A stretch of 32,000 nucleotides of DNA from Promethearchaeum syntrophicum (GTDB taxonomy: Archaea; Asgardarchaeota; Lokiarchaeia; Sigyniarchaeales; Promethearchaeaceae), in assembly GCF_008000775.2 (NCBI RefSeq), contig NZ_CP042905.2, positions 390,001-422,000 on the forward strand. Reading direction: 5' to 3'. Position numbers and translations under genes: made by a program. This document shows, in pieces, positions 1,192-29,580 of the stretch. The stretch's first letter is position 1. Every line of letters starts with the position of its first letter. Under the pieces are notes generated by a model, which was given only the letters and a program-made list of their open reading frames with translations, did not search any database and was not told the DNA's origin.

Positions 1192-1869
1192 TCAATTTTC
1201 AATTTCAAAAAGATCAAAAGCGTGAATTTCAAATGGAATTGGATTACCTAGGCGATTATATACTCCTAAAGAAGAGACATTATAGGGATTAGCCATAATA
1301 ATATTTACAGAAAATTTCCGAAAAGTATGTAAATCTGTAGAGCTTGGGTTATTATTCTTGTTCGGGTGAGAGTGACAAGATGCTACTAAAGTATTATCAT
1401 GTCTCATTCGATGTGGTAAAAAAATTGTTGATACTTCAGATGATTCTGAACCTGGAGCAATTATAAATTCCGCTAGAGAACCATTAATTACTCGCAATAA
1501 GCAGAAAGCTTCTTTTGGATGAAAATTTTTTGATAAATAGCTTATATCTTTAATAGTTTTATCTAAGAAATGAACTTTTAATCCAGCGATCATTTCAATA
1601 CTTTGTTTTAAAGCACCTATTACTAGGGATAATAATGGTGGATTAGACTTATCCCAATTTCGGAGAAGGGGAATAAATGCTTCGAAATCTCCCAAGATTC
1701 TTTGTATTTTTTTTGGGAGTGTCATTTTAGGTTTTTTTGGATATCGATTAAGGTTAATCGTTAACGATGCTTTGGGAAAGAGTGAAATCGTTAGGTTATT
1801 TGAGTCAATTATTGTAGTTTCCGGAAATTTTTCCAAGATTTTATCAATTTGATATTTTATTGTTAGCAT
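1192..1869 (-). CDS. JAMM/MPN+ metalloprotease with an N-terminal RWD/UBC-like extension
   Basis: The JAMM signature is complete: Glu in PKEAFCLL, then H-S-H-x7-S-x2-D (HSHPNKNNNPSSTD, nt 1333-1374). The N-terminal ~100 aa contain LTINLNRYPKKPKMTL and LLRNW..NPPLLSLV. The ATG at 1869 lies 2 nt after the upstream TGA (1872-1874). The track start at 1875 is a TTG overlapping that stop. Confidence 0.85.
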   Translation of the reverse strand: MLTIKYQIDKILEKFPETTIIDSNNLTISLFPKASLTINLNRYPKKPKMTLPKKIQRILGDFEAFIPLLRNWDKSNPPLLSLVIGALKQSIEMIAGLKVHFLDKTIKDISYLSKNFHPKEAFCLLRVINGSLAEFIIAPGSESSEVSTIFLPHRMRHDNTLVASCHSHPNKNNNPSSTDLHTFRKFSVNIIMANPYNVSSLGVYNRLGNPIPFEIHAFDLFEIEN

Positions 1870-1871
1870 TT

Positions 1872-2876
1872 TCAATCATCAACATTTCTGAGTTTTGTAT
1901 TAGTTAGGATTAGTTCTTGTAACCTTTTTTTAGTTCTACAAAAAGCGCAAGTTTCCATATAAGTCCCCATTCCACATATGATGCATTTTTTTTCAGCTTT
2001 TTTTTCTTCAGAAATGGTTCCAAATAATGTCGGCTTTAATCTTTCTTGAAATTTCTTAACCATGTAAAACATTGTTCCCCGCCGAAATTCTTCGATTTTC
2101 AGCATGGATTTTTTTATATTTCCTGATGGAGAATCAGTAGCGTACTCACATTCAGTTGATAGATGATGGATTTTTGCATAATATGCATACATTACAATTT
2201 CTTGTTCATAAATAAAGTATAACGGTTTAATACGGGTTATTAATCCTTGAACTTCTGTCATTGTTGTAGGTCCCGCTCTACTCATTAATTCCATGTCGAC
2301 ATTAAAAAAATTTCCCATTAACTGAGTGGCCTCATCAGTTAAATTATGACCGGTTGCAACTTTTGTAAATTTATTGAGCACTGCAAATTTATTGATAAAA
2401 TATCTTTTGAATAACCCACAATAGGAACATTCTCCTCTAAATCTTCCCCCTTTTTTCCTATGTTTTCCTCCTTTTTGTAACAATCCTAGTTTATGAACTG
2501 TATCGATATCAAATTCAAGTTCGGTTTTAATATCTATCATATTCAAGGGGATTTCTAATTTTTCACAAAGATCTTTTGCAACTTCATACGAATCATTAGA
2601 ATAATTTTTGGGGGTAACTCCAACATTGATATATAACGCCTCAATTTGGATATCTTTGTTGTATATTTCATGAAGGATAGTTAAAAGTGTTTGAGAATCT
2701 TTTCCACCACTCAAAGCGACAAGAACCTTATCATCAGATGTAATTAGATTATATTGATTAATGGTTTTTTTAACTCGATCATGGATATAACTAATAAAAT
2801 GCATCTTACAGAGGGGCATTTGATTTAATGGGATTAAAATAACCGCTGGTTGAGAGCAGAATTTACATTTTTTCAT
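1872..2876 (-). CDS. ttuA: tRNA 2-thiouridine synthetase, PP-loop ATPase of the TtuA/NcsA/Ncs6 family
   Basis: It has the PP-loop LVALSGGKDSQ. It has an N-terminal CKFC...CKMH and a C-terminal CIICG...CAFC zinc finger. Central Fe-S-type cysteines are present (GECSYCGLFKRY, STECEY). It is tightly coupled to the downstream JAMM gene. Confidence 0.85.
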   Translation of the reverse strand: MKKCKFCSQPAVILIPLNQMPLCKMHFISYIHDRVKKTINQYNLITSDDKVLVALSGGKDSQTLLTILHEIYNKDIQIEALYINVGVTPKNYSNDSYEVAKDLCEKLEIPLNMIDIKTELEFDIDTVHKLGLLQKGGKHRKKGGRFRGECSYCGLFKRYFINKFAVLNKFTKVATGHNLTDEATQLMGNFFNVDMELMSRAGPTTMTEVQGLITRIKPLYFIYEQEIVMYAYYAKIHHLSTECEYATDSPSGNIKKSMLKIEEFRRGTMFYMVKKFQERLKPTLFGTISEEKKAEKKCIICGMGTYMETCAFCRTKKRLQELILTNTKLRNVDD

Positions 2877-2920: not shown

Positions 2921-3176
2921 ATGAACGAAAAGTATTTTGAAGCAAATTTAAAAAAATGGGATGAAGTTGTTGACATCCATGCCAAATCGAAATTTTATGA
3001 TTTGGAAGGATTTAAATCAGGAAAAACATCCTTATTTCCAACCTTATTTCCATCCATATGGATTTTTCGCAAAACATCCAGATATGAAAAAAGATAATGA
3101 TGGCTTTTGGCGTTTTAATACATTAAAACAAGAAATACCTTTGATGTTTTCAATTAAAGCAAGAAAACCAGAATGA
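2921..3176 (+). pseudogene. Internally deleted relic of a class I SAM-dependent methyltransferase
   Basis: Frame 1 (2921-3097) gives MNEKYFEANLKKWDEVVDIHAKSKFYDLEGFKSGKTSL, a typical N-terminus of a widespread methyltransferase family. Frame 2 ends ...FHPYGFFAKHPDMKKDNDGFWRFNTLKQEIPLMFSIKARKPE (to 3176), a typical C-terminus of the same family. The whole SAM-binding core between them is absent and the two parts are out of frame. Confidence 0.6.
3030..3052 (+). repeat. Tandem direct duplication ccttatttcca-a-ccttatttcca (period 12 nt) at the junction of the methyltransferase relic
   Basis: Read directly: 3030-3040 equals 3042-3052 (11/11 nt), separated by a single A. Confidence 0.9.
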
Positions 3177-3196: not shown

Positions 3197-4723
3197 TTAT
3201 TTACTTTCTTCAATTTCTACAACATCAAGTTCCACACATAGCATAGGATTACCAAAAATTTTTGAAAGAGAAGGATTGGTTCTTCCATTATCTCCATGAA
3301 TCATTTCTTTAATATACATTCCCCCTTGACTATTAATTTTGAAAAAACCATGTCGTGAATCCACATATTTGCCTGTAATTGAATGAATCTTCTTTTTTCT
3401 AGTTTTATCAGAACGTCTATGAACAACTCTTAGAGGAGTTCGTTGATTAATGATCTTGTCATTTAATATCTCTTCAGCTTTTTGTAAATTTTCTTTAAAT
3501 TCATTTTTAGAGATAGGTTGTGCGAAATATACTAGAGCATTGTAATTTTTCCTTAAATATTCAGAGGATCTTTTAATTTCTATAATATCTTTTTTAGTGG
3601 CAGATATAAGTGAGTCCACAAATATTTTAGTTTTATTATTTTTATTTATATTTTGAGCAACTTCTGTTAACTCTACTTTTCTAATTTTTGGATTCCTAAT
3701 TTCAATTATAAATGAACGCCCAGATCCTATACAGCGAGCATCAATATCTTCTCTACCCGCTCCATGAAAAAGCGCTTCTTCACCTTTGGTTACCTTTACA
3801 AATTCGTTTCCAATTAAATCTTGAATTGAACTTGGATATCTATCACCAGTTCCTCCGCATTCGGTACAAATTTTCTTAGTAAATTTATTAAATCCTTTAC
3901 CATGGCATTCAAAACAATGCCAATGAGTTTGGGGTAAATCTCTTACCCATTTTTTATATCGACCTTTAAAATATAACGGAAGTGACCTAAGATTGAAATC
4001 CATTTTTCCTTTTAATTCTAAATTAATCGTTATCATTAGTCCTGGTTGCTCATATTTTGGTTGTTTTTTCCATAGGTCCTGTAATTCTTTACCAATCAAG
4101 CGATTTAAATTCGCTTTAAACGATTCGCCATTTTTCAAATTAAATTTTGCTCGTAATTCGTCTTCTTTATCAGCCTGGACTGCATTCAAATGAGTTCCTA
4201 TTAAAAAATCAGAAAAATCATATTCACGTGTCTTAAAATTAATTGAATTACAAATTTCGCTTATATTCTTTGGCATTAGAATATTTTCACATAATTGACA
4301 ATTAAATTCCGTCGTTCCTGAAGAATTTGATAATGTTGAGAATATAAATTCTTTATCTTTGAATTGGTCGATAATTTTCCTAGCTGGAATGAAATTAGTT
4401 CTTCTAGCTAATAAGTCCAAAATTTCAATTGGATTTTGGTTATAAAACATAAACCTTTCTTGAAAAGTTGTTTTTGATAGTAACAAATGGCATTCCATTG
4501 TAATTCCTAATAATATTGCATGAGCGCGCTCAAAATTTGAAGTAGCTGTCCCTAAATATGAAAATTGACGTCCAAGGCATTCATTACATAAACAATTATA
4601 TTTGAGAAGATCGATTGTTTTCTGATAGATACTTGGAGAAAGATTTGTATAATTGATTTGAATTTCTTCTTCTTTCAGATCCTCAGATTGGGATTCTTCA
4701 TGGCTGATAGGACGATTTTCCAC
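3197..4723 (-). CDS. pus10: tRNA pseudouridine(54/55) synthase Pus10
   Basis: It has the N-terminal zinc motif CLCNECLGRQFSYLG plus CQLCEN. The catalytic-core motif is GAGREDIDARCIGSGRSFIIEI. Further Pus10-type motifs are RTPLRVVHRRSDKTRKK and YIKEMIHGDNGRTNPSLS. The only available start is the GTG at 4723. Confidence 0.85.
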   Translation of the reverse strand: MENRPISHEESQSEDLKEEEIQINYTNLSPSIYQKTIDLLKYNCLCNECLGRQFSYLGTATSNFERAHAILLGITMECHLLLSKTTFQERFMFYNQNPIEILDLLARRTNFIPARKIIDQFKDKEFIFSTLSNSSGTTEFNCQLCENILMPKNISEICNSINFKTREYDFSDFLIGTHLNAVQADKEDELRAKFNLKNGESFKANLNRLIGKELQDLWKKQPKYEQPGLMITINLELKGKMDFNLRSLPLYFKGRYKKWVRDLPQTHWHCFECHGKGFNKFTKKICTECGGTGDRYPSSIQDLIGNEFVKVTKGEEALFHGAGREDIDARCIGSGRSFIIEIRNPKIRKVELTEVAQNINKNNKTKIFVDSLISATKKDIIEIKRSSEYLRKNYNALVYFAQPISKNEFKENLQKAEEILNDKIINQRTPLRVVHRRSDKTRKKKIHSITGKYVDSRHGFFKINSQGGMYIKEMIHGDNGRTNPSLSKIFGNPMLCVELDVVEIEESK

Positions 4724-4802: not shown

Positions 4803-5543
4803 ATGCTAACAAGCGAAGAATTGGAAAGGTATCAACGACAAATCCTAATTATAGGAAAAAATGGTCAAGAATTACTCAAACAAAAAAAAGTGCTCCAAGT
4901 GGGCTTAGGAGGCCTGGGATCTCCCCTCTCTTTATATCTTGTATCATCGGGAATTGGTGAATTAATTGTTTTTGAAAATGATGCTCTCTCATTATCCAAT
5001 TTAGGTCGACAAATTCTCTATAATACAGAGGATGTTAATATGTCCAAAGGAGGCCTCGCTAAATCTGTTCTTTCAAAATTGAATCCAAATATAAAAATTA
5101 CAATTATTAATGAACGTTTTACAATGCAAAGTGCTGAAAAATGTCTTAAAAACGCGAAAATTGACTATCTAGTTGACGCTTCTGATAATTTTGAGACTAA
5201 ATTTCTTATTAACGATATCGGTCTAAAATACAATATCCCCTTTACTATTGCTGGAATTCAAGGATTTGATGGACAACTAATTTCGGTAAATCCTCATGAA
5301 ACCGCTTGTTATCGATGTATTTTTGGTGATATGCCAAAGAATGATAAATTAAAACCAATCCCTGTTATGTCTCCAACTTGTGGTGTAGTGGGCTCTCTTG
5401 AAGCAAACGAAGTTATCAAAGGTCTTTTAAAAAGAGGAAAAAGGATAACTGATAACTTATTAATGATTAGTCTCGATTTAGGGGATTTTACACTTATTCC
5501 GATTAAGAAAAATCCCAACTGTGAATGTCAACTTAAGAACTGA
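4803..5543 (+). CDS. E1-like adenylyltransferase of the ThiF/MoeB/UbaA family
   Basis: It has the nucleotide loop VGLGGLGSPL, followed by LGRQILY and DASDNFETKFLINDI. A Cys pair CYRC and a C-terminal CEC are present. The PTCGVVGS loop is present. At 246 aa it is a compact prokaryotic E1. Confidence 0.85.
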   Translation: MLTSEELERYQRQILIIGKNGQELLKQKKVLQVGLGGLGSPLSLYLVSSGIGELIVFENDALSLSNLGRQILYNTEDVNMSKGGLAKSVLSKLNPNIKITIINERFTMQSAEKCLKNAKIDYLVDASDNFETKFLINDIGLKYNIPFTIAGIQGFDGQLISVNPHETACYRCIFGDMPKNDKLKPIPVMSPTCGVVGSLEANEVIKGLLKRGKRITDNLLMISLDLGDFTLIPIKKNPNCECQLKN

Positions 5544-5545
5544 TA

Positions 5546-5848
5546 CTAATCTTTGTCGCTGGAAAACGGTTCTTTTAATATTTTCTCATCCATTTTAATA
5601 TCTGTTTCATTATCTACATCATCAGGGTATAATTTTTTTAATTTGTCAAGATCAGCAAAATTTCCACCATTTTCATTTGACTCAATTTCAAGATAAAAGG
5701 CACCTTCATAATCGCAATCTCGACAGCGATAAATTTCAGTTACTGCCCACCCCATGTTTCTCGCTCTATATAATGATGGTTTTTCACATTTGGGGCATAT
5801 TTTAATAGAAAAAGTTTTTTTCTTTCTTAATTTCTTCCAAAACGGCAT
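5546..5848 (-). CDS. Small zinc-ribbon protein with an acidic C-terminal tail
   Basis: It has a CPKC...CRDC four-Cys ribbon after a basic N-terminus (KKLRKKK), and a tail rich in D/E/K. The start is an ATG. It is convergent with the E1-like gene, with 2 nt between the stops. Confidence 0.6.
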   Translation of the reverse strand: MPFWKKLRKKKTFSIKICPKCEKPSLYRARNMGWAVTEIYRCRDCDYEGAFYLEIESNENGGNFADLDKLKKLYPDDVDNETDIKMDEKILKEPFSSDKD

Positions 5849-5924
5849 ATTAAATTCATTAAACTTTCTTTACCAAAAAAATTTCCTACCAAAAAGATTT
5901 AAGTTTTTAAATAAAAAATTAAAT

Positions 5925-8612
5925 GTGACTGAAATTCAATCTCTTCTGAAACAATTAGATAGCGAAGAAACAAGGCTTCTTACAATTAAGAGGTTAGGAA
6001 TGGTTTATGATCCTAACTTAGTAGATCACCTCGTAAAATATCTTTTGGATAAAAATGGTAAGATCCGAGAAGCAACAATTTTTGCATTGAGCGCTTTGGG
6101 AGAAGTAGATACTATTATAGATCCAATAATTAATTGTTTAGGGGATGAAGTAAAAGAAGTACAAATTGCTGCAATAAAGACTCTTGGTGAATTTCGTTCA
6201 ATTAGGGGAACAAAACCATTAATTAAAATGTTAAATAACTCAGATAATGATGTTAGAGCTGCAACTGTAGTTGCACTTGGTTTGATTGAGGATAAAAATA
6301 GTCTATTTCCATTGATAGATGCTCTGGAAGATAAAGATGAAGAAGTAAAGATTAATGCTATAATGGCATTGGGTCAAATTGGTGATCAACGCGCAATAGA
6401 TCCAATTATTGAATGCTTAAAAGGAAGTTTTCCAGTACAACAAATGGCAATTCTAACTTTAGGAAAATTTGGTGATAAAAAGATCATTTCTCCTCTCAAA
6501 AAACTTTTATCTTCCCCAAATCCAAAAATCAGACAATATGCGATCATGTCTCTAGGATCTTTAAAAAATTCTAAGATTATAGAATATGCTATAAGGCTTC
6601 TAGATGATGAAGATCCCTCTGTACAACGCGCTGCAGCATCATCATTAATGGGATTACATGATCAACAAATTGTAACATCATTTATAGATCGCTTGAAGGA
6701 CTCTAATCCTGAAATCCGTCAAACTGCTTGTAAGGCATTGGGGAATCTGAAGGATGAGTCTGCAGTTATGGGTTTAATTGAAACTTTAAAAGATATTGAA
6801 CCAGAAGTTCGGGAACAGGCTGCTCACTCTTTAGGGATATTGGGAGATACTTCAGCAACAAAGCCTCTTATTAGCCAACTTAAAAAAGACAATGATCCCA
6901 AAGTACGTGCAACAATTGCATTGGCCCTAGGTAAAATAGAAGGACAAGCATCTCATGGGGGATTATCTAAAAAATTTAGTGTTTCCTCCGCAATAAGACC
7001 ATTATCAAAAGCTTTATCTGATCCAGATTTAAAAGTTCGAGCCAATTCAGCAGAATCATTAGCAAAGATTTCAATTTCAGGAGGCTCGTTCAAAAAAGCA
7101 CAATCTTATTATGAAAAAGCAGCAGCAGAGTCATTAACTTGGGATTATCATCAAAGTATTTATCAAGCATGTGCAATTGGTTGTGGATTAATTGAATCGA
7201 TTTCAAAAGGAATATACAAAGACTACGTTGCAGAATTTGATTTAATATATGAGAATTTAGAATTATCTGCAAAAATGATTGGAAATCAAACATTTCTATC
7301 TTATAATTATTGGAAATTACTGCAAGTATTTAATTCAATCTTTCTAAGCAAAACTAAGGAGCAATTCATCCAATATTATAGAGATTTTGGATTGCAATTA
7401 CTACTATTAGCTAAGAAATTACCAGAAGAGAGTAGAGAAATATTAAATGAATCTCAAGATAAATTAAATGAAAAATTTACTATGATTGATAAACGAGGGC
7501 TACCTCTAGAGCAATCCATTGCAGAAATGGAAAAATTGAAAGAAGAGGTAAATGAGATTGCAAATAAAATATTGCAACTGGAACCATTAGAATTACGCAT
7601 GGAGGAAAAAACGAAGAAATCGGTCAAAGCGATTGAAAGCTTAATTTCCACAGTTGATGATATAGTTAGTGATAGTGAACCTACATTGAATGATAGTCCT
7701 ATTACAATTAGAATTACATCAAAAAAAGAACGGAATTTTAATTTAGAAGAAGTCGATTTTGGAACCAGTATATCGCTAGATCATAATAAACCCACTCCCA
7801 TAGCTTTAATACAATTACAAAAAGGGATTAAAAGAGAAAGTTATGTTCAGGAACCAAGAGATTTATGGGAGAAATCCGTACAAAGATATTACGATTATAA
7901 TATTTATCGCCATTCAAGAATTCTCCAATTTACAAAAGAATCAATTCAGATGCGTGCTAAACCTAAAATTATTGGATATCTTGATGATATGATATATGAA
8001 AGTAAAAAATTAGTAATTTTTCCTGAAAATTCTGTTCCATATTCTTATTTGGATAAATTACAGCAGTTTGCAGATCGATTTAATTTCTTCATAATTGCAG
8101 GAATCGAAACTATGGCTGAAAAAGGTTCATATTTTAATCGTGCTTATCTTATTGGGCCATTATTAGAAAGATTTTCATTTCAACAAAAAAATTCTCAAAC
8201 GGTTCTACCTCCCTCAGAGAAAAGCATTAGTGAATGGAGGGAAAATATCGAACCAACTATTCCACCTGTTTTTAAAATATTCAATTCCCCTTTTGGGAAA
8301 TTTTTGATTCTGATAGGTCAAGATATTGTTGAAAATTTGCAGTATTTACCATTTATTTTCCGTGAAAAAAGTTTGGATTTTGCGATATTATTAAACAATG
8401 GATATTTACATGATTCAACTCTAAAAGACATCCAAAATCTGGCAAATGAGACAAAGAAACCAATATTTCTTGTAAATACTGGTCAATTTGGTGGAACCGG
8501 TATTTATTTACCCAACCAAACAATGGATTCATTATTGCAGAATGAATTCACTGAAGGTATTGCTTCATATGAATTAGAAATACCTGAAGAAGAAGATCTA
8601 GAGTTATTATAA
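5925..8612 (+). CDS. HEAT-repeat protein with a central helical/coiled-coil region and a C-terminal carbon-nitrogen-hydrolase-like domain lacking the catalytic Cys
   Basis: It has at least 11 tandem ~31-aa HEAT/PBS-lyase-type repeats (D..VR..A..ALG..GD). The C-terminal ~270 aa follow CN-hydrolase topology (IALIQ, LVIFPE, FFIIAG..YFNRAYLIGP..FQQKN, FLILIGQD, FAILLNN, IFLVNTGQFGGTGIYLP). The start is uncertain. The ATG at 5754 overlaps the divergent gene by 95 nt, so I prefer the GTG at 5925; the ATG at 6000 is the alternative. Confidence 0.8.
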   Translation: MTEIQSLLKQLDSEETRLLTIKRLGMVYDPNLVDHLVKYLLDKNGKIREATIFALSALGEVDTIIDPIINCLGDEVKEVQIAAIKTLGEFRSIRGTKPLIKMLNNSDNDVRAATVVALGLIEDKNSLFPLIDALEDKDEEVKINAIMALGQIGDQRAIDPIIECLKGSFPVQQMAILTLGKFGDKKIISPLKKLLSSPNPKIRQYAIMSLGSLKNSKIIEYAIRLLDDEDPSVQRAAASSLMGLHDQQIVTSFIDRLKDSNPEIRQTACKALGNLKDESAVMGLIETLKDIEPEVREQAAHSLGILGDTSATKPLISQLKKDNDPKVRATIALALGKIEGQASHGGLSKKFSVSSAIRPLSKALSDPDLKVRANSAESLAKISISGGSFKKAQSYYEKAAAESLTWDYHQSIYQACAIGCGLIESISKGIYKDYVAEFDLIYENLELSAKMIGNQTFLSYNYWKLLQVFNSIFLSKTKEQFIQYYRDFGLQLLLLAKKLPEESREILNESQDKLNEKFTMIDKRGLPLEQSIAEMEKLKEEVNEIANKILQLEPLELRMEEKTKKSVKAIESLISTVDDIVSDSEPTLNDSPITIRITSKKERNFNLEEVDFGTSISLDHNKPTPIALIQLQKGIKRESYVQEPRDLWEKSVQRYYDYNIYRHSRILQFTKESIQMRAKPKIIGYLDDMIYESKKLVIFPENSVPYSYLDKLQQFADRFNFFIIAGIETMAEKGSYFNRAYLIGPLLERFSFQQKNSQTVLPPSEKSISEWRENIEPTIPPVFKIFNSPFGKFLILIGQDIVENLQYLPFIFREKSLDFAILLNNGYLHDSTLKDIQNLANETKKPIFLVNTGQFGGTGIYLPNQTMDSLLQNEFTEGIASYELEIPEEEDLELL
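6048..7085 (+). repeat. Intragenic array of at least 11 HEAT/PBS-lyase-like repeats (about 93 nt each, diverged at DNA level)
   Basis: The protein-level periodicity is visible in units such as NSDNDVRAATVVALGLIED, DKDEEVKINAIMALGQIGD, DSNPEIRQTACKALGNLKD, DIEPEVREQAAHSLGILGD and DNDPKVRATIALALGKIEG. Confidence 0.8.
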
Positions 8613-13755: not shown

Positions 13756-14895
13756 ATGAATCTATTTGAAAGAACAAAAATAATTTTAGAAAAACATGAT
13801 ATTGATGGTTGGTTAGTAATGAGTAGTGAAGGAAATGATATTCACGCACAATATTTATTAGATGTTGAAGCTCACATAATGCATTTCATATATATATCTC
13901 GAAATGAAAAAGATCATGTTGTTTCATGCGTAATGGAAGCACCTATGATCAAAAAATCTTTGGAACGGCAAGGAATTGAAGCAGAAGTATCTACATACAA
14001 ATCTTTCAAAGATATTGGATCAATTCTTGCAAAACTATTAAAAGATAAGAAAATTGCGCTAAATTTTGGAGAAGATGTATTATCTTCTAGTGGAACAGGA
14101 TATGCTGAATTCCTTCCAGTTGGATTATATAATGCTTTACTGAAATATTCACCAACTACAAAATTTGTATCTGCAGCTCCGATAATCTATGAATTACGGA
14201 GTGTGAAATCCCCTGAAGAAATTGAAGATTTAAAGCATGCAACAAAAGCCACCATTGAAATTTTGGAAGATATCCCAAATTGGGTAAAAATTGGGATGAC
14301 TGAAAAAGAAATCAAAGCCAAACTTGAATATGAATATCTGAAAATTGGGACTCTTTCATTTCCTGCAATTGTTGCAAATAATGAACATGCTGCCGATCCC
14401 CATCATAACTGTTCGGATAAAAAAGTGGAAAAAGGGGTCTTATTAATTGATTCTGGAGTAAAAACCCGTCGAATATGCTCAGACATTACTTGGACATATT
14501 GGGTGGGAGGAAACCCTCCGGAAGATTTCCTTCAAGCCTATGATGCATTATATTATTCTAAAAAAGTATCATATAAATATATTAAAGCGGGAGCACCAGC
14601 AAATATGCCCGCAATTAAATGTCGTGAAGCGTTGCAAGAACGCGGCTACGATACAGATAAATTATATTTCCATGGTCTTGCTCATCCAATAGGATTTGTG
14701 GTGCACGATATCGGACCAGGAATGAGTATGAAAACAGATCCAAGCCGCTTACTCGTTGAAAACATGGTCTATTCAAATGAACCTGGACTATATTGGGAAA
14801 ATAAATGGGGAATTCGTCTGGAAGACGATTTGGTGGTAGGAAAAGATGGGGCTATTGTTGTTTCTTATAATCCGAAGAATCCCCTCCTAATTTAA
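13756..14895 (+). CDS. M24-family metallopeptidase (Xaa-Pro aminopeptidase/dipeptidase type)
   Basis: It has the pita-bread-fold metal ligands in canonical order: LLIDSG...CSDITWTY (D, D), HGLAHPIGFVVHD (H), SNEPGLY (E), GIRLEDDLVV (E). The track start at 13738 is a TTG, so I use the ATG at 13756 (MNLFERTK). Confidence 0.85.
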   Translation: MNLFERTKIILEKHDIDGWLVMSSEGNDIHAQYLLDVEAHIMHFIYISRNEKDHVVSCVMEAPMIKKSLERQGIEAEVSTYKSFKDIGSILAKLLKDKKIALNFGEDVLSSSGTGYAEFLPVGLYNALLKYSPTTKFVSAAPIIYELRSVKSPEEIEDLKHATKATIEILEDIPNWVKIGMTEKEIKAKLEYEYLKIGTLSFPAIVANNEHAADPHHNCSDKKVEKGVLLIDSGVKTRRICSDITWTYWVGGNPPEDFLQAYDALYYSKKVSYKYIKAGAPANMPAIKCREALQERGYDTDKLYFHGLAHPIGFVVHDIGPGMSMKTDPSRLLVENMVYSNEPGLYWENKWGIRLEDDLVVGKDGAIVVSYNPKNPLLI

Positions 14896-15196
14896 TCAGA
14901 TTTTTATATTCTTCAATAATTAGATTAAATTTTTTAATATCTTCTTCATTTTTTGTATTTTTAATTAATTCCATTGTTAAATTTATTTTTTTATTTAAAA
15001 ATTCTTTAATATTCTCTTGATTTATATTATCAATCTCTAAAACTTCCAAAATTTCATAATATATTTTTGATTTTAATAAATATTCATCATACATTTGTTT
15101 AGATAAGTGAGATATTAAATTTGGATTATAATCTTCAAGTTGGCTTTCATTTTTTATTTTCAAATCGGTAATATAAAAAGAATCTCGAATATTCAT
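14852..15196 (-). CDS. Hypothetical helical protein, 114 aa
   Basis: It has an ATG start and an E/K/N/I/L-rich, helix-prone sequence with no recognisable motif. Its 3' end overlaps the convergent peptidase gene by 44 nt. It is on the same strand as, and 55 nt downstream of, the longin-V4R gene. Confidence 0.4.
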   Translation of the reverse strand: MNIRDSFYITDLKIKNESQLEDYNPNLISHLSKQMYDEYLLKSKIYYEILEVLEIDNINQENIKEFLNKKINLTMELIKNTKNEEDIKKFNLIIEEYKNLIKLGGDSSDYKKQQ

Positions 15197-16122: not shown

Positions 16123-16476
16123 TTATGAATCTGAGTTTTTACCGTCTTCTCCCATTAAGAATTTTGTGAATCTAAAAAGTATCATCAGTGAAATAGCAAA
16201 AAGTAATAGACCAACTATCTGAAAAATTACTAAAGTTAATTTATAAGGTTCATAGTTATCTATCCAATAAAATTCTGTAAAGAAATCCAACCCTGCAGAA
16301 AGAGTTCCAAGAACAATCCCGCTAATTAAAACCAAGAATCCTTTGGATGCAAATATTCTATTATTTTTCTTTGCATAAAATGCCATTAACAGTACAAATA
16401 GATACGCAAATAAAGCCAATCCTTCTAAAATTGCATCAAGAATATCGATGTCTTCAAGTGGGCTAAGAAATTGCAT
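16123..16476 (-). CDS. Small integral membrane protein (3 predicted TM), paralogue of the upstream gene
   Basis: It has three long hydrophobic segments. The track start at 16539 is a TTG inside the upstream gene. The ATG at 16476 (MQFLSPLEDIDILDAILEG...) leaves a 10-nt spacer after the upstream stop. The ATG at 16515 is an alternative. Confidence 0.55.
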   Translation of the reverse strand: MQFLSPLEDIDILDAILEGLALFAYLFVLLMAFYAKKNNRIFASKGFLVLISGIVLGTLSAGLDFFTEFYWIDNYEPYKLTLVIFQIVGLLLFAISLMILFRFTKFLMGEDGKNSDS

Positions 16477-16486
16477 AAGTTCCACT

Positions 16487-16852
16487 TTATTTTCCCTCCC
16501 AAATTTTAATACCATAAAGGGCGATTCTGTAAAATGCAAATCCTATGATAAACAATCCGATAAAGGCAAAAATTGCATCTAACATGTCGAATACTGAATA
16601 AGCGAGCGCAGTTTCACCATTGATTTTTTTTGTCACCCAAGTATCTAATAAATCAAAAATAAAATGAGCAGCAAATACCCCAAAACCAATAATCATTTCA
16701 TTAAAACCCTTGCGAGTTAATTTTGGGTAGTGAATTTTTAAATAAATAATAATAATTATTACAGATAAAGCAGCGATAGCCGTAATTAATTCAATAGTAA
16801 TTGTTCCTAATTCATCATTTAATCTCAATTGGTCTATTGAATCCCACTCCAT
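16487..16852 (-). CDS. Small integral membrane protein (3 predicted TM)
   Basis: It has an ATG start and three hydrophobic segments (ELITAIAALSVIIIIIYL, MIIGFGVFAAHFIFDLL, VFDMLDAIFAFIGLFIIGFAFY). No known motif is present. Confidence 0.6.
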   Translation of the reverse strand: MEWDSIDQLRLNDELGTITIELITAIAALSVIIIIIYLKIHYPKLTRKGFNEMIIGFGVFAAHFIFDLLDTWVTKKINGETALAYSVFDMLDAIFAFIGLFIIGFAFYRIALYGIKIWEGK

Positions 16853-19812: not shown

Positions 19813-19930
19813 ATCAAATTAATTCTAACATTGGAATTTAATTTTTTGAATTTTAAATTAAAAAAATATTGATGTTTTTTCATGTTATTGTATGAAAAAA
19901 TTGAAAAATTATCGTGTTTTTTTTTTTCCA

Positions 19931-21445
19931 ATGACTTCAAAATTTTTGCGATTCTTTTCACCTTTTACGCGCGTCACAACAGAAATTAGAAAACCAGATA
20001 GAGAAATCTCATTCAAAGATAAAATCATCTATACCCTTGTAATTCTTGTAATTTACATTATTATGTCGAATATTCCGATCTATGGTATTGCGACAGATGC
20101 TGGAAATGACATGTATTATTGGTTGAGAGTTATCTTAGCTTCTAAGCGTGGAACATTAACAGAGATGGGTATCGGTCCAATTGTAACCGCTGGTTTGATT
20201 ATGCAATTACTTCAAGGTTCAAAACTGATTAATGTAAACATGGGAGATCCAACAGATCGTGCATTATTTACTGGAGCGCAAAAAGTAATCGCCATTGGGT
20301 TAACTATTTTCCAAAGTATAGCCTATATTGAGGGTGGTGCCTTTGGAGAAATTGAATCAACTTTGTTTAAAATATTAGTTTTCCTTCAGCTATTCCTAGC
20401 TGGACAAGTAATTATTCTGTTAGATGAAGTCTTACAAAAAGGATACGGATTAGGTTCGGGTGTGTCCTTATTTATTGCCACAGGTGTGGCCGGACAAATA
20501 TTTTGGAATGCATTTTCTTTCTTTGATGTTACAGCTGAAGGAAGTGATTTTCTTCCACGTGGGATTATAATTGCATTCTTTGCAGTCTTGTTTGGATCAC
20601 ATCAATTCCCAGAAGGACATATACAAGCTGGTGATGAAATAGGAATTGGGGATTTATTTTTAAGAAATGCTGGAGCTCCAGGTCTTCTGGGTTTGCTGAC
20701 AACTATTTTAATATTTCTCGCAGTAATTTATGTCCAAACCATGCAAGTGGAAATTCCCCTAACTTATGCTGGGCACAAAGGTTATCGTGGAAAGTATCCG
20801 ATGAAATTATTATATGTTTCGAATATACCCGTCATACTTGCTCAAGCTTTATATGCTAACTTCTTATTTTTCGGACAAATTTTATGGAACGCTAAGGTGG
20901 AAAATGGTTGGGGAGATTGGATAAACCTTATCGGAGAATTCACACAAGCGACAGAAGGGGTAGATGCATCACATTTACAACCAGTTGGAGGCTTATTATA
21001 TCTAATAACTCCGCCTCAGGGGCTGTCCTATATTCTCGATCCGGCGAATGATCAAAGTCTAAGATTATTGCTTCTTCATAGCGTCGGATATCTACTTATT
21101 TTTATTACGATTTGTATTGTATTTGGTCGTATTTGGGTCGAGGTTTCAGGTTTGGCACCCCGTGATATCGCTGGTCAAATTATTAATTCGAAAATGCAAA
21201 TACCCGGTTTTAGACGTTCTGAAAAAGTAATTGAAAAAATTCTGAAAAGATATATACCGACGTTAACAATACTGTGTGGTATAATTGTTGGACTTTTATC
21301 ATTTACTGCGGACTTTCTTGGAGCTCTCTCTTCTGGAACAGGATTACTTTTATCAGTTGGGATCATCCAAAACTATGCTGAAACGATAGGAAAAGAAGCT
21401 GCCGCCGAATCAATGCCCGGTATGGGCGGATTACTCGGTATGTAG
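19931..21445 (+). CDS. secY: Preprotein translocase subunit SecY (Sec61alpha type)
   Basis: It has 10 TM segments. Characteristic stretches are ISFKDKIIYTLVILVIYIIMSNIPIYGI, RGTLTEMGIGPIVTAGLIMQLL, GSGVSLFIATGV and LLYVSNIPVILAQAL. The ATG at 19931 (MTSKFLRF) is preferred over the upstream track start at 19892. Confidence 0.93.
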   Translation: MTSKFLRFFSPFTRVTTEIRKPDREISFKDKIIYTLVILVIYIIMSNIPIYGIATDAGNDMYYWLRVILASKRGTLTEMGIGPIVTAGLIMQLLQGSKLINVNMGDPTDRALFTGAQKVIAIGLTIFQSIAYIEGGAFGEIESTLFKILVFLQLFLAGQVIILLDEVLQKGYGLGSGVSLFIATGVAGQIFWNAFSFFDVTAEGSDFLPRGIIIAFFAVLFGSHQFPEGHIQAGDEIGIGDLFLRNAGAPGLLGLLTTILIFLAVIYVQTMQVEIPLTYAGHKGYRGKYPMKLLYVSNIPVILAQALYANFLFFGQILWNAKVENGWGDWINLIGEFTQATEGVDASHLQPVGGLLYLITPPQGLSYILDPANDQSLRLLLLHSVGYLLIFITICIVFGRIWVEVSGLAPRDIAGQIINSKMQIPGFRRSEKVIEKILKRYIPTLTILCGIIVGLLSFTADFLGALSSGTGLLLSVGIIQNYAETIGKEAAAESMPGMGGLLGM

Positions 21446-21466
21446 AGAGATTTCAAAGGTTAATAT

Positions 21467-21489
21467 AAGGAATTTTTTACTCCTTTTTT
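21467..21489 (+). terminator. Weak hairpin (aagga/tcctt) flanked by two T6 runs downstream of secY
   Basis: The sequence is aagga-attttttac-tccttttttc, 20 nt after the secY TAG. The oligo-T runs fit archaeal termination. The stem is only 5 bp. Confidence 0.25.
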
Positions 21490-21593
21490 CATTAATTATA
21501 TATAAAAATCAAAGACAATTTTTTGGCAAGTTTCTTTCATAATTTATAAATTTCAGAAATTTTTTTTTAATCCCGTTATTATATTAATATATA

Positions 21594-22256
21594 ATGATAT
21601 TAGCTTGGGCAGATTTTATTACTTGGTTGACGACGCCTCCAGTTTCAATGTGGTTTATATTCGTTGTTAGCATTCTTGTTTCCTTGTTTTCAACCTTTCT
21701 CAATAAAGTTTTAGTTGATCATGATAAAATGAACAGACAACAAGATGTTATAAATGATCATAAGAAAAGAAAAAAAGAATTATTGCAATTATCGGAAGAT
21801 AATCCAAAAAGATATGCTAAAGAATATCCAAAGTGGCAACGAAGAGATCCCAGTATTAAAAATATGGAACAAAAGATGAGCTTACAGAGATTAAAACCAA
21901 GTTGTTTTACATTTCTACCAATGATTATATTCTTCTATGTAATTCGTAATATGTTTACTCCTGAAGGTTCTCCAATTCAATTTCCTGTTGCCAGTGGTTC
22001 AATGAATCCAATGCAAGAATTTCCGACTTTACTTACAACTATGCTACAATCTGAGATGTATTCAGTGTTAGGGAATATTGTTGTAGATCATGGTTTTATC
22101 GGTTTTACTGGTTGGTATATGTTATGTAGTTTCACGAATTCAACAATAATCAACAAATTACTTAAAGTTTCAAGACCTTCGGGAGGACAAGGTATGGGAT
22201 CAATGTTCGATTCTAAGGCTCAAGAAGATTTGCCGAATCCGAAATCACTACTTTGA
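21594..22256 (+). CDS. DUF106 / EMC3-TMCO1-Get1-like (archaeal YidC-like) membrane protein
   Basis: It has an N-terminal TM (WFIFVVSILVSLFSTFL), then a basic coiled-coil hairpin (VDHDKMNRQQDVINDHKKRKKELLQLSEDNPKRYAKEYPKWQRR), then further hydrophobic segments. It lies directly downstream of secY, as DUF106 genes do in many archaea. Confidence 0.7.
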   Translation: MILAWADFITWLTTPPVSMWFIFVVSILVSLFSTFLNKVLVDHDKMNRQQDVINDHKKRKKELLQLSEDNPKRYAKEYPKWQRRDPSIKNMEQKMSLQRLKPSCFTFLPMIIFFYVIRNMFTPEGSPIQFPVASGSMNPMQEFPTLLTTMLQSEMYSVLGNIVVDHGFIGFTGWYMLCSFTNSTIINKLLKVSRPSGGQGMGSMFDSKAQEDLPNPKSLL

Positions 22257-22299: not shown

Positions 22300-22857
22300 A
22301 TGGCTAAGAAGAAAATGGTTATTGGTCCGAAAGGAGAATCCCCCAAAGAAATTGTTGATAATAATGTTCAAATTATTGATGTTTCGAATTTCTTTAACTA
22401 TCAACGTGCAATAAATTCTCTTATTGATTATTTAAACCTAAGTATTGATGATATGATAGCTGGCTTTACAAGATCAGACCAGGAAAAATTCAGTACTCCA
22501 AATAAGAAATTAATTCTTAATGCAATTCTAGAATCTGGTTTTTATGAATTTACTAAATATAAATTGAAAATTATTTCAGAAAGTAAGGAATTTAGTGATG
22601 AAAAGAAATTTCTCGAGATGATGGAACGCGTTCAAGGAGAAATTGACTTATTAGCATATCTTTTAGTGTATTCCCGAATGTCCCATCGTAATTTAAATTT
22701 CGATTTGTTTTTATCACTATTAAAAGGGGGTCTTTTTGTCGATATACTTGAAACACATGAAAAAATTGTAAAGGATATGCAAAAACGGGCACAATCTTTA
22801 AATAAAGATAACATCAAAGAAAATGTTAAAGTTAATGATTCGAGTTTTTATATTTAA
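22300..22857 (+). CDS. Hypothetical protein, 185 aa
   Basis: It has an ATG start 43 nt after the DUF106 gene on the same strand. The sequence is of non-trivial complexity but I recognise no motif. Confidence 0.5.
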   Translation: MAKKKMVIGPKGESPKEIVDNNVQIIDVSNFFNYQRAINSLIDYLNLSIDDMIAGFTRSDQEKFSTPNKKLILNAILESGFYEFTKYKLKIISESKEFSDEKKFLEMMERVQGEIDLLAYLLVYSRMSHRNLNFDLFLSLLKGGLFVDILETHEKIVKDMQKRAQSLNKDNIKENVKVNDSSFYI

Positions 22858-22878: not shown

Positions 22879-23850
22879 TCATTTCAAATTTGTTTCAAGT
22901 GATTTAACTTTTTTAAATATTGAATTTGTAACGTTAATATATAAATCCTTCATTATTTCTTCAAATTCCAGTGGTTTTTCTACATTTGGAGCTATCCCTA
23001 AAGTATCTAATATGTCAAAATGAACTCCTGGTTTTGAAAAAGAAAAGCCTATTTCGTATGGTTCCCCTGATAGAAAGTTCTTATGGGATAAATCATGAAA
23101 ATTTAAACTCGGAACATCAAATGCATCATCATACGAATGAATTTGCTCGCGAATTTTATGAGTAGATTGAACAATAGGCCTGTTTGCACAAGATCGCGCA
23201 AGTTGCAAATCGTGTAATAAATCATCTCTAGATTTTCCTCTAAGTTTTAGAAGTAAAAATGGATCCAAATCAAGAACTCTTGCAGTATATAATATTGTGG
23301 CGGCAATATGTTTGCAAGGAACTGCTTGATCAGGACAAGAACAGCTTGCATTTAGGGTTTTTGAAGCTGGAGGGAATAATTGATAACCTGTTTCCTTGAA
23401 GATTTGATGTAAATTATCGGGAATTTTATTTTCTAATAAAGCAATTATATATTTCACTTTTTTGGCAATTTTAAGGAGAATTTCGTTCCACCCCTCCTCA
23501 GGTATGGTTTTAAAATTTATTTTTACCCTATATGGAGTTGGTGCTGTGCCTTGGACTGTTCCAAAAATTTGACCAGGACTAACTGTTAGATTTTCGATAC
23601 GGTTTTCCTCTGCATACCGCATTCCTCTTTGCATTCTATAAGGTCTTCCGAATTTTAAAATTGATTCGATCCATTGAATTCCCCACTGTGTATGAGCAAA
23701 ATTCAATAGATCGTCCATAATTTGTTGAACTTCGTGCCTTTTTTGTTGCCTTTCTTGATAGTTTTTTGGTCTAGATCCTGATAGTTTTGGATCATTGTGG
23801 GAGTTCAAAGTTCTTTTTCGATAAGAACGAGCTGATGTTTTTTTTGCCAT
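22879..23850 (-). CDS. SWIM zinc-finger protein (partner of the upstream SNF2 helicase)
   Basis: The SWIM signature is CSCPDQAVPCKHIAATILY (CxCxnCxH). It is preceded by the family-typical RGMRYAEENRIENLTVSPGQIFGTVQGTAPTPYRVKI. The ATG at 23850 overlaps the SNF2 TGA by 1 nt (TGATG). The track start at 23853 is a TTG. Confidence 0.85.
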   Translation of the reverse strand: MAKKTSARSYRKRTLNSHNDPKLSGSRPKNYQERQQKRHEVQQIMDDLLNFAHTQWGIQWIESILKFGRPYRMQRGMRYAEENRIENLTVSPGQIFGTVQGTAPTPYRVKINFKTIPEEGWNEILLKIAKKVKYIIALLENKIPDNLHQIFKETGYQLFPPASKTLNASCSCPDQAVPCKHIAATILYTARVLDLDPFLLLKLRGKSRDDLLHDLQLARSCANRPIVQSTHKIREQIHSYDDAFDVPSLNFHDLSHKNFLSGEPYEIGFSFSKPGVHFDILDTLGIAPNVEKPLEFEEIMKDLYINVTNSIFKKVKSLETNLK

Positions 23851-26800
23851 CAATTAGTCAGTCCTGGTTCATTTAATAGGAATATTTCTCGCAATTCTTC
23901 AGTAGAAAGATCAGTAATCCAATTTTCTCCAGCCGAACTTAAAATTTTATCTGCAAGATTACGTTTTTCTTCAAGCATTTTGTCAATTCTCTCTTCGATA
24001 GTTCCAAGTGCTATGAATTTGTACACATTCACATTTTTCTCTTGCCCAATTCGATATGCCCGATCAGTTGCTTGGTCCTCAACTGCAGGATTCCACCATC
24101 TATCAAAATGAAATACTGTAGATGCTTGAGTTAAATTAAGTCCTGTTCCTCCGGCTTTCAGTGATAATATCAGTATCGGCGAACTATCCAAATCTTGAGA
24201 TTGAAATTCATCTACAAGTTCCCTACGTTTCTTTTCAGGAACTCCTCCATGAAACCAACCTATATTAAACAAATATTTCTTTTCAAGAAAGTATTTTAAT
24301 AGATCTCCCATTTGTTTGAATTGAGTAAATATCAAAATTTTTTCACCATCTTCTAATATTTCATTAACCATTTCAAGTAAGCGTTCAAATTTCACAGATG
24401 ATTTAATAAAATCATCAAAATTATAATTAGGTGTACTTTCAATTTTTGATGAATTTATGTGTAGAAATTGGTAAGGATGATTGCATATTTGTTTAGTTTG
24501 TGTTAGAAGACGTAAAACTAATCCTCTTCTCTTTGATTCGTGAAATTCTAAATTTTCTATCTCTTTTAATGTAGAATTTACAGTTCTTTTGTATAATTCT
24601 GATTGTTTTTCACTCAATTCTAAGAAAATCTTGATTTCATTCTTTTCAGGCAGATCTTGAATTATTTCTTTGTCAGTTTTTAACCTCCTTAGAATGAAAG
24701 GAGAAATTATGCGTTTCAGTTTATTACTTCCTTCTTCATTGTGAAATCGTTCGATTGGTAGGATAAAATTTTTATAGAAATTTGCCTGGGTACCGAGCAA
24801 ACCAGGATTTAAAAACTCAAATAAGGTCCAAAGTTCAATTAATCGATTTTCAATCGGTGTTCCAGTCATTGCTATACGGTACATGCTTTTTAATCGAAGA
24901 ATTGCTTTTGTTTGTTGTGCTTTATAATTTTTAATATTTTGAGACTCATCCAAGATCACTCCAGTAAATGGAATTGCTTCCAATACTTCAATTTCATTAC
25001 GAACTATCCCATAGGTTGTTAAAATAATTCGATTAGGTATTGTAAATTCTGATAAAGCTTCATTCTCATCTATTCTCTTCTTTCCATGATAGATTAAAAT
25101 ATCAAGAGACGGAGCAAATTTTTGAAGTTCGCGGTGCCAATTAAATAGGACTGATGTGGGACAAACAACAAGAACACTTCCGGTTGAAATTTCGTCGTAT
25201 TTTTCTTTTCGGTGAAGTAGAAACGAAATCACTTCAATAGTTTTTCCCAGTCCCATGTCATCCGCTAAACAAATGCCAAAGTTAAATTCTGTCATATTTG
25301 CCAACCAAACAAGCCCTATTTCTTGATAAGGTCTTAATTCTCCCTTAAATAAGGTTGGTGTTGTAATTTTTTGAAAAGAATCAATTTCAGAAAATTCTGT
25401 TATATATTTCTGGAAATTTCCCTCTAATATAACTTCATAAGTATTTTTAGCATCAGATAGTTGGATATTCTTAGTAATTCCTAAATTTATTGCCTCAGAA
25501 AGCGATAATGTTCCTTTAATTTTTTGTTTTTGTTCAAAAATTGGTCTTAAAGTATTCATATCTTCTTGATCTACTAATACCCATTGATCCCGCCAGAAAA
25601 TGAGTGGTTCCTTAATTTTGGCTAATTCAAGGAATTCTGATTCCGTTAATTTTTGATTTTCTAAGCGAGCTTCCCATTCGAATTCTAAAAATGAATTAAG
25701 ATCAAATAATTTGCTAATATTTCCCCCTGCAAATCCTGATTGTTTATTTTTTTGATTAGATTTTGAATCCCTAATTACCATTCTCGCACTTAAACGTTGT
25801 TGACCTTTAAGTCTGAATTGTTCTGGTAATACAACATTGAAACCAACCTGTCTTAAAAGATATTGTGAATATCTAAGAAGATCCATGACCTCTGTTATAT
25901 CGAGTTTTATCCTATTGGGGTTTTTGACTTCTAAAATTCTTTTTAATGGAGGAAAAAGTTTAACTGCTATTCCCAAAGCTCGTAATATTTCTTCTTGTAA
26001 TCCTTCTTCATCATCACAAACATTTGCAAATTCTTCTTTTTGTGTTACATTCCCATTCCAAACTTCACTTAATGAAATAAAATAATCTAAATCATGTAAC
26101 GGTTGAATATATATTCCTAATACCCAAGCAGATTTTGGAGATTTTGGGTATTCTAATCTAAATGTAAATAACACACCTAGTGCGAAAGAAAATCCTTGAG
26201 TTTGTTGAACCCAATTTTGCAGTATTCCCGGAATTGGAGTGTCGCAAAAACGAGTTATTTCAAAAATACGATTTTTGCCAATACAAGAATTAAGAAAACG
26301 TAAATCCCATGGATTTTTTTCCTCGAGATTACAAGCATTTCCTAATTGATCAAGATCCGAGTTGTATAAGTTTGTAAATTTCTTATGAAAATTTGTACTT
26401 AAAGAATCTCTAATTAAAAAATCTGAAACTTGATTCATATAGTTAGCGAATAAATAAGACGGATGCCAAACTCCTGTTGTTTTAACTCCATTTGGTTTCA
26501 TAGAAATAAAATTTATAGGTAAATTGTAGGAACTCCATGGAGCATTGTTAAGAATTTTTTGAAATCGTTTATGATCTAGTTGAGTTTTAAATATGACATT
26601 CCACATTCCTTCATAATGTTTTAAATCAATTTTTTTAAGCGTAGGGATAAAATTCCCTCTGCTGACTAATTCTAGGGTAAATTTAGTTAAAAAAGCCCAA
26701 GTTTTGATTGAATTTGAATAAGAAATAAAATTTTGACTTCTATCTTGAAGATTTACAATCTGAAGCGGAAAAAGAACGCGTATTGCAGGAGGAATTGGTA

Positions 26801-29476: not shown

Positions 29477-29580
29477 TAATTTTTCAGTTCCCAAAAATCA
29501 TAGTTCATTTCTCAAAATAGATGTTATCATAAAAAGCTCTAAACGATTCTAAATAGCGGAAATTCTAAATTAAGAAATTT

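Follow-up and report, generated by a model that had tools for sequence, protein, structure and literature searches.

A Cysteine-less UBC-Fold Domain Fused to an AfJAMM-Type Protease in the ttuA Neighborhood of Promethearchaeum syntrophicum

The Haloferax enzyme HvJAMM1 is a standalone archaeal JAMM desampylase that acts on conjugates of the tRNA thiolase NcsA, from which it cleaves the ubiquitin-like protein (Ubl) SAMP2 (PMC4048286). In the TtuA/TtuB/TtuC system of Thermus thermophilus, the Ubl conjugates formed on a TtuA-type thiolase are modulated by a JAMM homolog, which also influences thiouridine levels; in the JAMM mutant, the TtuB conjugates of TtuA and TtuC are aberrant and thiouridine is lower by ∼50% (PMC3980101). 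Bacterial Ubl operons link an E2-fold domain, sometimes lacking the Cys, to a JAB protease and an E1-like enzyme (Iyer, Burroughs and Aravind 2006, PMC1779556). A related linkage is found in the DNA described here, a window of 32,000 nt from Promethearchaeum syntrophicum (NZ_CP042905.2, positions 390,001-422,000, forward strand). Directly behind a ttuA-like gene, it carries a gene that encodes a two-domain protein, consisting of a Cys-less UBC-fold domain and an AfJAMM-type protease (the JAMM protein).

The architecture of this protein differs from these bacterial types. They include E2-E1-JAB triple-module proteins and type 6e operons that contain an inactive E2/RWD-like domain, but the E2 in them is usually active and fused via the E1, or else an inactive domain occurs by itself or joined to a poly-Ubl, and the operons belong mostly to proteobacteria and cyanobacteria, whereas the window protein is from an Asgard archaeon. 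A direct fusion of a pseudo-E2 (an E2-like domain without catalytic residues) to JAB beside ttuA is not among the operon types compared from that survey (PMC1779556). Likewise, the description of the Thermus enzyme used for comparison does not mention an N-terminal pseudo-E2 domain. A literature search found no description of the pseudo-E2-JAB two-domain architecture, of its family, or of the pairing with ttuA. The linkage of pseudo-E2 and JAB is a known prokaryotic theme, and the two-domain Asgard fusion paired with ttuA appears to be an undescribed variant of it.

The open reading frame (ORF) of the JAMM protein spans 1192..1869(-) and encodes 225 residues from an ATG; an alternative TTG at 1875 would extend it to 1192..1875(-) and 227 residues. 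Residues are numbered here from the ATG at 1869. A preliminary description of this DNA had placed an RWD/UBC(UEV)-like domain at 1576-1875, an interval that corresponds to residues 1-100 when counted from the TTG, and the peptide it quoted is exactly the minus-strand translation. The sole Pfam match in the protein is Prok-JAB (PF14464) at residues 119-200 (32.7 bits, cutoff 25). With a profile of 22 close homologs, AfJAMM/AF2198 (1oi0/1r5x) aligns from end to end, with query residues 106-215 on chain residues 11-120 (E 6.5e-14), so that the catalytic domain of the known enzyme is covered over its full length. The AfJAMM chains, at 124-133 residues, have a single domain, whereas the window protein has ∼96 additional N-terminal residues. 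The end-to-end alignment indicates that the protease domain starts at approximately residue 97 and that residues 1-96 constitute an extra domain, termed the N-domain. The E/HxH/S/D motif of AfJAMM is intact in the form E...H-x-H-x7-S-x2-D (E120, H166-x-H168, S176, and D179) and invariant in the 22 close homologs; because the motif is complete and invariant, the predicted enzyme should be active. By its sequence, the C-terminal half can be classed as a zinc isopeptidase of the AfJAMM type, minimal in form and with a full catalytic motif. No Rpn11, BRCC36, or AMSH chains were found among the PDB-search matches of this JAB half.

An AlphaFold2 (AF2) model of residues 1-106, built from a 27-sequence alignment, reached a mean predicted local distance difference test score (pLDDT) of 89.5 and a predicted template modeling score of 0.81. 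It comprises a helix (4-14), strands at 19-20, 25-31, and 34-39, the YPKKP segment (43-47), a further strand (48-50), helices within 53-70, a loop bearing W72, and a helix at 80-94. The order proposed in the preliminary description, an N-terminal helix, strands, a YPxxP flap, and a Trp followed by a helix, matches this predicted secondary structure. The model has the topology of the UBC superfamily (N-terminal helix, antiparallel β-meander, flap, and C-terminal helices) and also that of RWD domains (α-β4-α-α without a catalytic Cys). The missing E2 active-site Cys, likewise proposed earlier, was borne out, since residues 1-106 contain no Cys and none is conserved across the family. An HPN motif is absent as well, and the N-domain thus has neither of the two features of a catalytic E2, the active-site Cys and HPN. 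Among 27 diverse family members, only P44, P47, and W72 are invariant or nearly so, and no Cys or His is conserved. The N-domain is a pseudo-E2, with a UBC-superfamily fold, a YPxxP flap, and a post-flap Trp, and without the HPN motif or the catalytic Cys.

A Foldseek comparison of an AlphaFold model, the check suggested in the preliminary description, returned top matches that consistently belong to the UBC superfamily, the best with a TM score above 0.6 but with an E-value above 0.03. Six of the top eight PDB matches are UBC-like domains of FANCL, led by 9a0j_l (probability 1.00, TM scores 0.61/0.63) and including 3zqs, 7kzp_L, 7kzp_M, and 3k1l. Lower in the list are BRCC45 (6gvw_C, query TM score 0.50), Mediator Med15 (0.49), UBE2L6 (0.49), and Atg10. 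In a full-length AF2 model, the N-domain is identical in fold to the domain-only model, and FANCL again provides the top Foldseek matches. Taken alone, the predicted structure suggests a UBC fold; it is consistent with it and not decisive.

Sequence homology of the N-domain to recognized UBC members can be detected only transitively; a direct similarity, marginal database-wide, is to BRCC45 (below). Pfam gave no match on residues 1-100 of the JAMM protein, and direct profile searches of PDB sequences with the close family, the diverse family, or N-domains plus middle repeats (see below) yielded nothing significant; hits to Nup192 and to designed helices were rejected as short helical matches. 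The link is provided by distant relatives, multi-domain proteins of 360-690 residues that hold two or three copies of the N-domain type as middle repeats. In one of them (P0033), the N-terminal domain passes the Pfam threshold for UQ_con (PF00179; 46.2 bits, cutoff 27), and the last repeat passes that for RWD (PF05773; cutoff 22.8) in P0031 (41.5 bits), P0033 (36.7 bits), and P0036 (24.8 bits). Local hhalign comparisons connect the N-domain to the middle repeats (99.4%, E 1.6e-21), the middle repeats to the UQ_con-like N-terminal domain (94.9%), and the latter to the RWD-like last repeat (96.5%). The direct comparisons are weaker, at 68% for the N-domain and the UQ_con-like domain and just 10.6% for the N-domain and the RWD-positive last repeat. 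Because the chain leads to domains that pass the UQ_con and RWD thresholds, the N-domain is assigned to the UBC superfamily. The preliminary description had named a lack of profile-profile similarity to UQ_con, RWD, or UEV families as grounds for giving up the assignment; similarity was found, at 95%-99% along the hhalign chain.

The best natural match of the profile of N-domains plus middle repeats, against all PDB sequences, is the UEV domain at the N terminus (UEV-N) of BRCC45/BRE, with E-values of 0.22-0.34 for five sequence variants. The alignment spans YP-x-x-P...L-x-x-W-[ND]-x-x-x-P and the following helix. In a direct hhalign comparison with BRCC45 residues 1-165, this profile scored 34.8 (83%) and the N-domains alone gave 48%, and 150 shuffles of the BRCC45 sequence reached a mean of 11.1 (SD 2.0, maximum 19.2), which places the real score at a z of about 11.6. 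UBE2D2, UBE2N, and RWDD1 remained at background, with scores of 10-15 and 0.1%-1.2% (RWDD1 0.2%, the E2s at most 1.2%). Each of the four sequences compared was checked in the PDB, where that of BRCC45 is identical to 9smn_C. The only family that recurred in the Pfam scans is BRE (PF06113), weakly, in 2 of 29 domain sequences (best E 0.04).

These results refine the earlier label "RWD/UBC(UEV)-like." A non-catalytic, UEV-like UBC fold is upheld; a canonical RWD domain is not, given the lack of a Pfam RWD match, the background score of RWDD1, and the register of the flap. The RWD motif is defined as YPxxxP (PMC6601020), whereas YPxxP is the register of E2 and UEV domains. The family keeps Y/F-P-x-x-P (P44 and P47), and the position four residues after P44 is Lys and not Pro, so the canonical RWD motif is absent. 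The flap register agrees with the BRCC45 comparison, and on sequence grounds the N-domain appears to be UEV-like and BRE-like rather than a canonical RWD. It is very improbable that the resemblance to UBC and RWD domains is superficial and that the N-domain is an unrelated small α/β domain. Such a view could draw on the Foldseek E-values, all above 0.03, on the missing Pfam match, and on the nonsignificant PDB sequence search. It is countered by the consistency of the top Foldseek matches, by the hhalign chain, by a BRCC45 score far above the shuffles, and by the conservation of the YPxxP flap and the Trp at the expected positions.

The 22 close homologs of the JAMM protein share 63%-86% identity, are all about 225-238 residues long, and conserve the N-domain. 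A hidden Markov model (HMM) of the N-domain, run with full HMMER, found 30 clusters at E ≤ 1e-3 among 1.84 billion cluster representatives. This conservation and the clusters found indicate that the N-domain is more than a chance extension. The organisms named in the family are Promethearchaeota, Promethearchaeum, Ca. Harpocratesius, Helarchaeota, and a Loki's Castle sediment metagenome; as far as the sources name organisms, the family seems to be small and confined to Lokiarchaeia-type Asgard archaea. The multi-domain relatives (P0031, P0033-P0036, P0038, P0041, P0042, and P0049, from loci L014-L016) are from Promethearchaeota. In their chains, a UQ_con-like domain precedes two or three copies of the N-domain type, which are followed by an RWD-positive domain. 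When full length, they end in a Cys-rich RING/PHD-like finger (weak zf-rbx1 and FANCL_C matches), and some also have an N-terminal RING. No ubiquitin operon was seen in the neighborhoods of these loci. The occurrence of tandem copies together with UQ_con-like, RWD-like, and RING-like parts places the N-domain in a context of ubiquitin-type signaling. An Asgard "RWD-like domain" has a single mention in the searchable literature (PMC6601020), and with this family the Asgard ubiquitin toolkit gains a sparsely documented component, one that recurs in FANCL/BRE-like multi-domain proteins with RING-like fingers.

Further members of the family carry a JAB domain. P0040 (481 residues; cluster member P0056) combines an AN1 zinc finger, TPR repeats, a pseudo-E2 domain, and JAB, an architecture that suggests a link to ubiquitin/proteasome-type proteostasis. 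Four distant paralogs (P0028, P0030, P0045, and P0047) have the same pseudo-E2-JAB architecture with degenerate JAMM motifs, in which either a His or the Glu, Ser, and Asp have been lost, and could be candidate MPN- pseudo-proteases able to pair with active ones. A second Prok-JAB protein, larger at 372 residues, is encoded at 7309-8427(-) of locus L005, ∼4 kb from the pseudo-E2-JAB gene of a distant homolog; a 142-residue ORF with no Pfam match on record adjoins it.

FANCL and BRE/BRCC45 are the eukaryotic proteins that the N-domain most resembles. FANCL provides the best structural matches, and the Lokiarchaeal relatives of the N-domain likewise consist of tandem UBC-like domains followed by a RING-like finger. 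The ELF domain of FANCL, an E2 fold that lacks the Cys, binds ubiquitin noncovalently (PMC4543658). Unlike the window protein, FANCL is a eukaryotic DNA-repair E3 without a protease domain, and it has no significant sequence similarity to the N-domain. BRCC45 UEV-N shares with the N-domain a non-catalytic UBC fold that works with an MPN/JAMM module, as well as the signature YP-x-x-P...L-x-x-W-[ND]-x-x-x-P-x-x-[LIV]; UEV-N docks on the MPN domain of ABRAXAS (PMC6695476). In the BRCC36 JAMM complexes BRISC and BRCA1-A, the parts are separate polypeptides of eukaryotic multi-subunit assemblies, whereas the window protein is a single chain. BRE has three domains (UEV-RWD-UEV) and the partners BRCC36, Abraxas, and MERIT40, an architecture that the window protein, with one such domain fused to an AfJAMM-type JAB, does not have. 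It is distinctly doubtful, though conceivable, that the Lokiarchaeal YPxxP...W pseudo-E2 family represents the archaeal stock of eukaryotic BRE/BRCC45 and FANCL-type UEV/ELF scaffolds, with the window protein as a forerunner, in one chain, of the core UEV-N:MPN pairing of BRISC and BRCA1-A. If this were so, Asgard archaea would already have combined pseudo-E2 scaffolds, JAMM deconjugases, and RING-like ligases, and if the likeness to BRCC45 UEV-N reflects descent, the pseudo-E2:MPN pairing of eukaryotic BRCC36 complexes would have an archaeal antecedent.

The likeness to BRE also bears on a reading in which the N-domain binds no Ubl and serves as a scaffold or dimerization module that docks on its own or a partner MPN domain, like BRE UEV-N on ABRAXAS or the kinetochore RWD domains that pair, and thereby controls assembly or activation of the protease. 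This is considered unlikely. The closest sequence match is itself an MPN-binding domain (PMC6695476), and the four paralogs with degenerate motifs would be candidate MPN- partners; on the other side, the BRE match is marginal database-wide, and the full-length AF2 model is uninformative on the JAB half.

The coordinates of the features in the window are collected in the table. Five Promethearchaeum loci (L001, L002, and L006-L008) share the gene order E1, Pus10, (methyltransferase), TtuA, JAMM; in them, the gap between ttuA and the JAMM gene is at most ∼15 nt, or the two genes overlap. In the window, the ttuA stop codon precedes the ATG of the JAMM gene by 2 nt; with the alternative TTG as the start, the two overlap. 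The ttuA-like product scores best with the NCBIfam model of Pyrococcus-type TtuA (215.6 bits) and lower with NcsA (138.2 bits), and the E1-like protein scores 158-191 bits with the MoeB, ThiF, and UbaA models; in both cases, all scores are under the equivalog cutoffs. Only residues 1-41 and 230-273 persist of the 274-residue methyltransferase that related Promethearchaeum genomes encode between ttuA and pus10 (86%-90% identity), which indicates that the gene in the window is a remnant with an internal deletion of ∼188 codons.

Table. Features of the JAMM gene and its neighbors, in window coordinates
Feature	Position	Strand	Basis or remark
N-terminal non-catalytic UBC-fold (UEV/RWD-like) domain	1582..1869	(-)	Residues 1-96; AF2, Foldseek, hhalign
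YPKKP flap	1729-1743	(-)	N-domain residues 43-47
Invariant Trp72 codon	1654-1656	(-)	N-domain
AfJAMM-type MPN+/JAMM metalloprotease domain	1192..1581	(-)	Residues 97-225 and stop codon; Pfam, AfJAMM match
JAMM motif codons	E120 1510-1512; H166 1372-1374; H168 1366-1368; S176 1342-1344; D179 1333-1335	(-)	
ttuA-like tRNA 2-thiolase, PP-loop, N-terminal LIM-like and C-terminal zinc fingers	1872..2876	(-)	Pfam ATP_bind_3, TtuA_LIM_N
S-adenosylmethionine-dependent methyltransferase remnant	2921..3170	(+)	tblastn of L001 methyltransferase against window and loci
Pus10, tRNA pseudouridine synthase	3197..4723	(-)	Pfam Pus10_C 6.2e-65, Pus10_THUMP_arc; syntenic in Promethearchaeum
ThiF/MoeB/UbaA-type E1-like adenylyltransferase	4803..5543	(+)	Pfam ThiF 2e-59; syntenic
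Conserved 100-residue zinc-ribbon protein beside E1 gene, not a Ubl	5546..5848	(-)	Weak zinc-ribbon matches; kept in L001, L006-L008

On balance, the JAMM protein is probably a two-domain Ubl-deconjugating or Ubl-processing enzyme of Lokiarchaeia-type Asgard archaea, in which the pseudo-E2 provides binding to a Ubl or a partner and which, in Promethearchaeum, tunes tRNA thiolation. Minimal archaeal JAMM proteases have no obvious means of substrate choice, and the fused pseudo-E2 is a concrete candidate for that role: it would target an otherwise minimal protease. By analogy with UEV domains and with the ELF domain of FANCL, which binds ubiquitin (PMC4543658), it may bind a Ubl noncovalently, and it may also or instead dock onto an MPN domain or another partner in the manner of BRE UEV-N. 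In Promethearchaeum, the JAMM gene would share a transcript with ttuA and probably be coupled to it in translation, within a cluster that also includes Pus10 and the ThiF/UbaA-type E1. There the most likely task of the enzyme would be to free TtuA and related proteins of a sulfur-carrier Ubl (SAMP2/TtuB/Urm1-like), or to mature this Ubl. Either activity could tune tRNA thiolation, for which the Thermus JAMM homolog and HvJAMM1 are the precedents. Inactive E2/RWD-like domains are also found in bacterial operons with JAB and E1 (PMC1779556), and the P0040 relative, with its AN1 finger, TPR repeats, N-domain-type module, and JAB, fits a role in ubiquitin biology or proteostasis. The genus Promethearchaeum has a cultured member. 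Its putative ttuA operon gives direct experimental access to the control of tRNA thiolation by Ubls.

A number of results weigh against this proposal. For the N-domain, no Foldseek match reached E < 1e-3 and the TM scores are moderate, no match to the Pfam RWD, UQ_con, or UEV families appeared at E ≤ 10 in scans of 27 and 29 domain sequences, and the BRCC45 match is marginal as a database-wide E-value (0.22). The JAB half of the full-length AF2 model is poor (pLDDT <50 for residues 129-225), and the model is uninformative about contacts between the two domains. No Ubl gene was found in the window among ORFs of at least 40 residues ending in GG, nor in the syntenic loci. Finally, in Ca. Harpocratesius (53% identity) and in more distant homologs, the neighbors are unrelated and ttuA is not adjacent. 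Pfam scans of 20 other window ORFs gave no match to ThiS, MoaD, Urm1, or ubiquitin.

The neighborhoods outside the genus are pertinent to another reading, that the protein belongs, as a deubiquitinase, to the true ubiquitin system of Asgard archaea (ubiquitin, E1, E2, and RING) rather than to a sulfur-carrier Ubl pathway, the adjacency to ttuA being a genus-specific accident of gene order. This is possible, though on the whole rather unlikely. Neither Harpocratesius nor any of the more distant homologs, which lie among unrelated genes, retains the adjacency, and relatives of the N-domain sit with UQ_con-like and RWD-like domains and RING-like fingers, one being fused to an AN1 finger. Against it, the pairing in Promethearchaeum is tight (overlap or ≤∼15 nt) and kept across 63%-86% identity together with a ThiF-type E1, the JAB half is AfJAMM-like with no Rpn11, BRCC36, or AMSH chain in its PDB matches, and JAMM control of TtuA/NcsA conjugates has precedent (PMC3980101, PMC4048286). 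The tRNA-thiolase context given in the preliminary description is confirmed in that the JAMM gene directly follows ttuA, and it does not extend beyond Promethearchaeum. Since the tight pairing was found only in this genus, a link to tRNA thiolation is plausible and lineage-specific.

The eukaryotic E1 enzymes have a C-terminal ubiquitin-fold domain that recruits E2s. The preliminary description had suggested that the N-domain could dock the Ubl-E1 or a Ubl-modified TtuA onto the protease. An analogous docking of the pseudo-E2 onto the neighboring ThiF/UbaA-type E1, as E2s bind E1s, would bring the protease to where the Ubl is activated. In Promethearchaeum, a conserved E1-like gene lies at a distance of about 3 kb, and the N-domain is predicted to have an E2-superfamily fold. 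In the 246-residue E1, however, one ThiF adenylation domain takes up residues 10-242, so that an E2-recruiting ubiquitin-fold domain would not fit, and the linkage to the E1 is genus-specific. Docking of this kind is improbable. A role in the Asgard ubiquitin system, a scaffold or dimerization role, and docking on the E1 differ from the proposed sulfur-carrier Ubl function mainly in the binding partner.

An anti-phage defense function (CBASS Cap2/Cap3 or Bil-like) was considered for the locus and rejected; PADLOC gave only generic E1 and weak JAB matches and no system architecture. Elsewhere in the window, ORFs without a Pfam match lie at 14852-15196, 16123-16852, 22300-22857, 27565-27846, and 28274-29494. 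At 22879-27098(-), a 324-residue SWIM zinc-finger protein overlaps the end of an ORF of 1082 residues, and at 19892-22256(+), SecY is followed by a gene for an EMC3/TMCO1-like membrane insertase of the Oxa1 superfamily. Closer to the cluster, 5754-8612(+) encodes a 952-residue protein whose first half bears a long array of HEAT repeats and whose C-terminal half, ∼450 residues, has no Pfam match; this protein is conserved beside the zinc-ribbon and E1 genes in Promethearchaeum.

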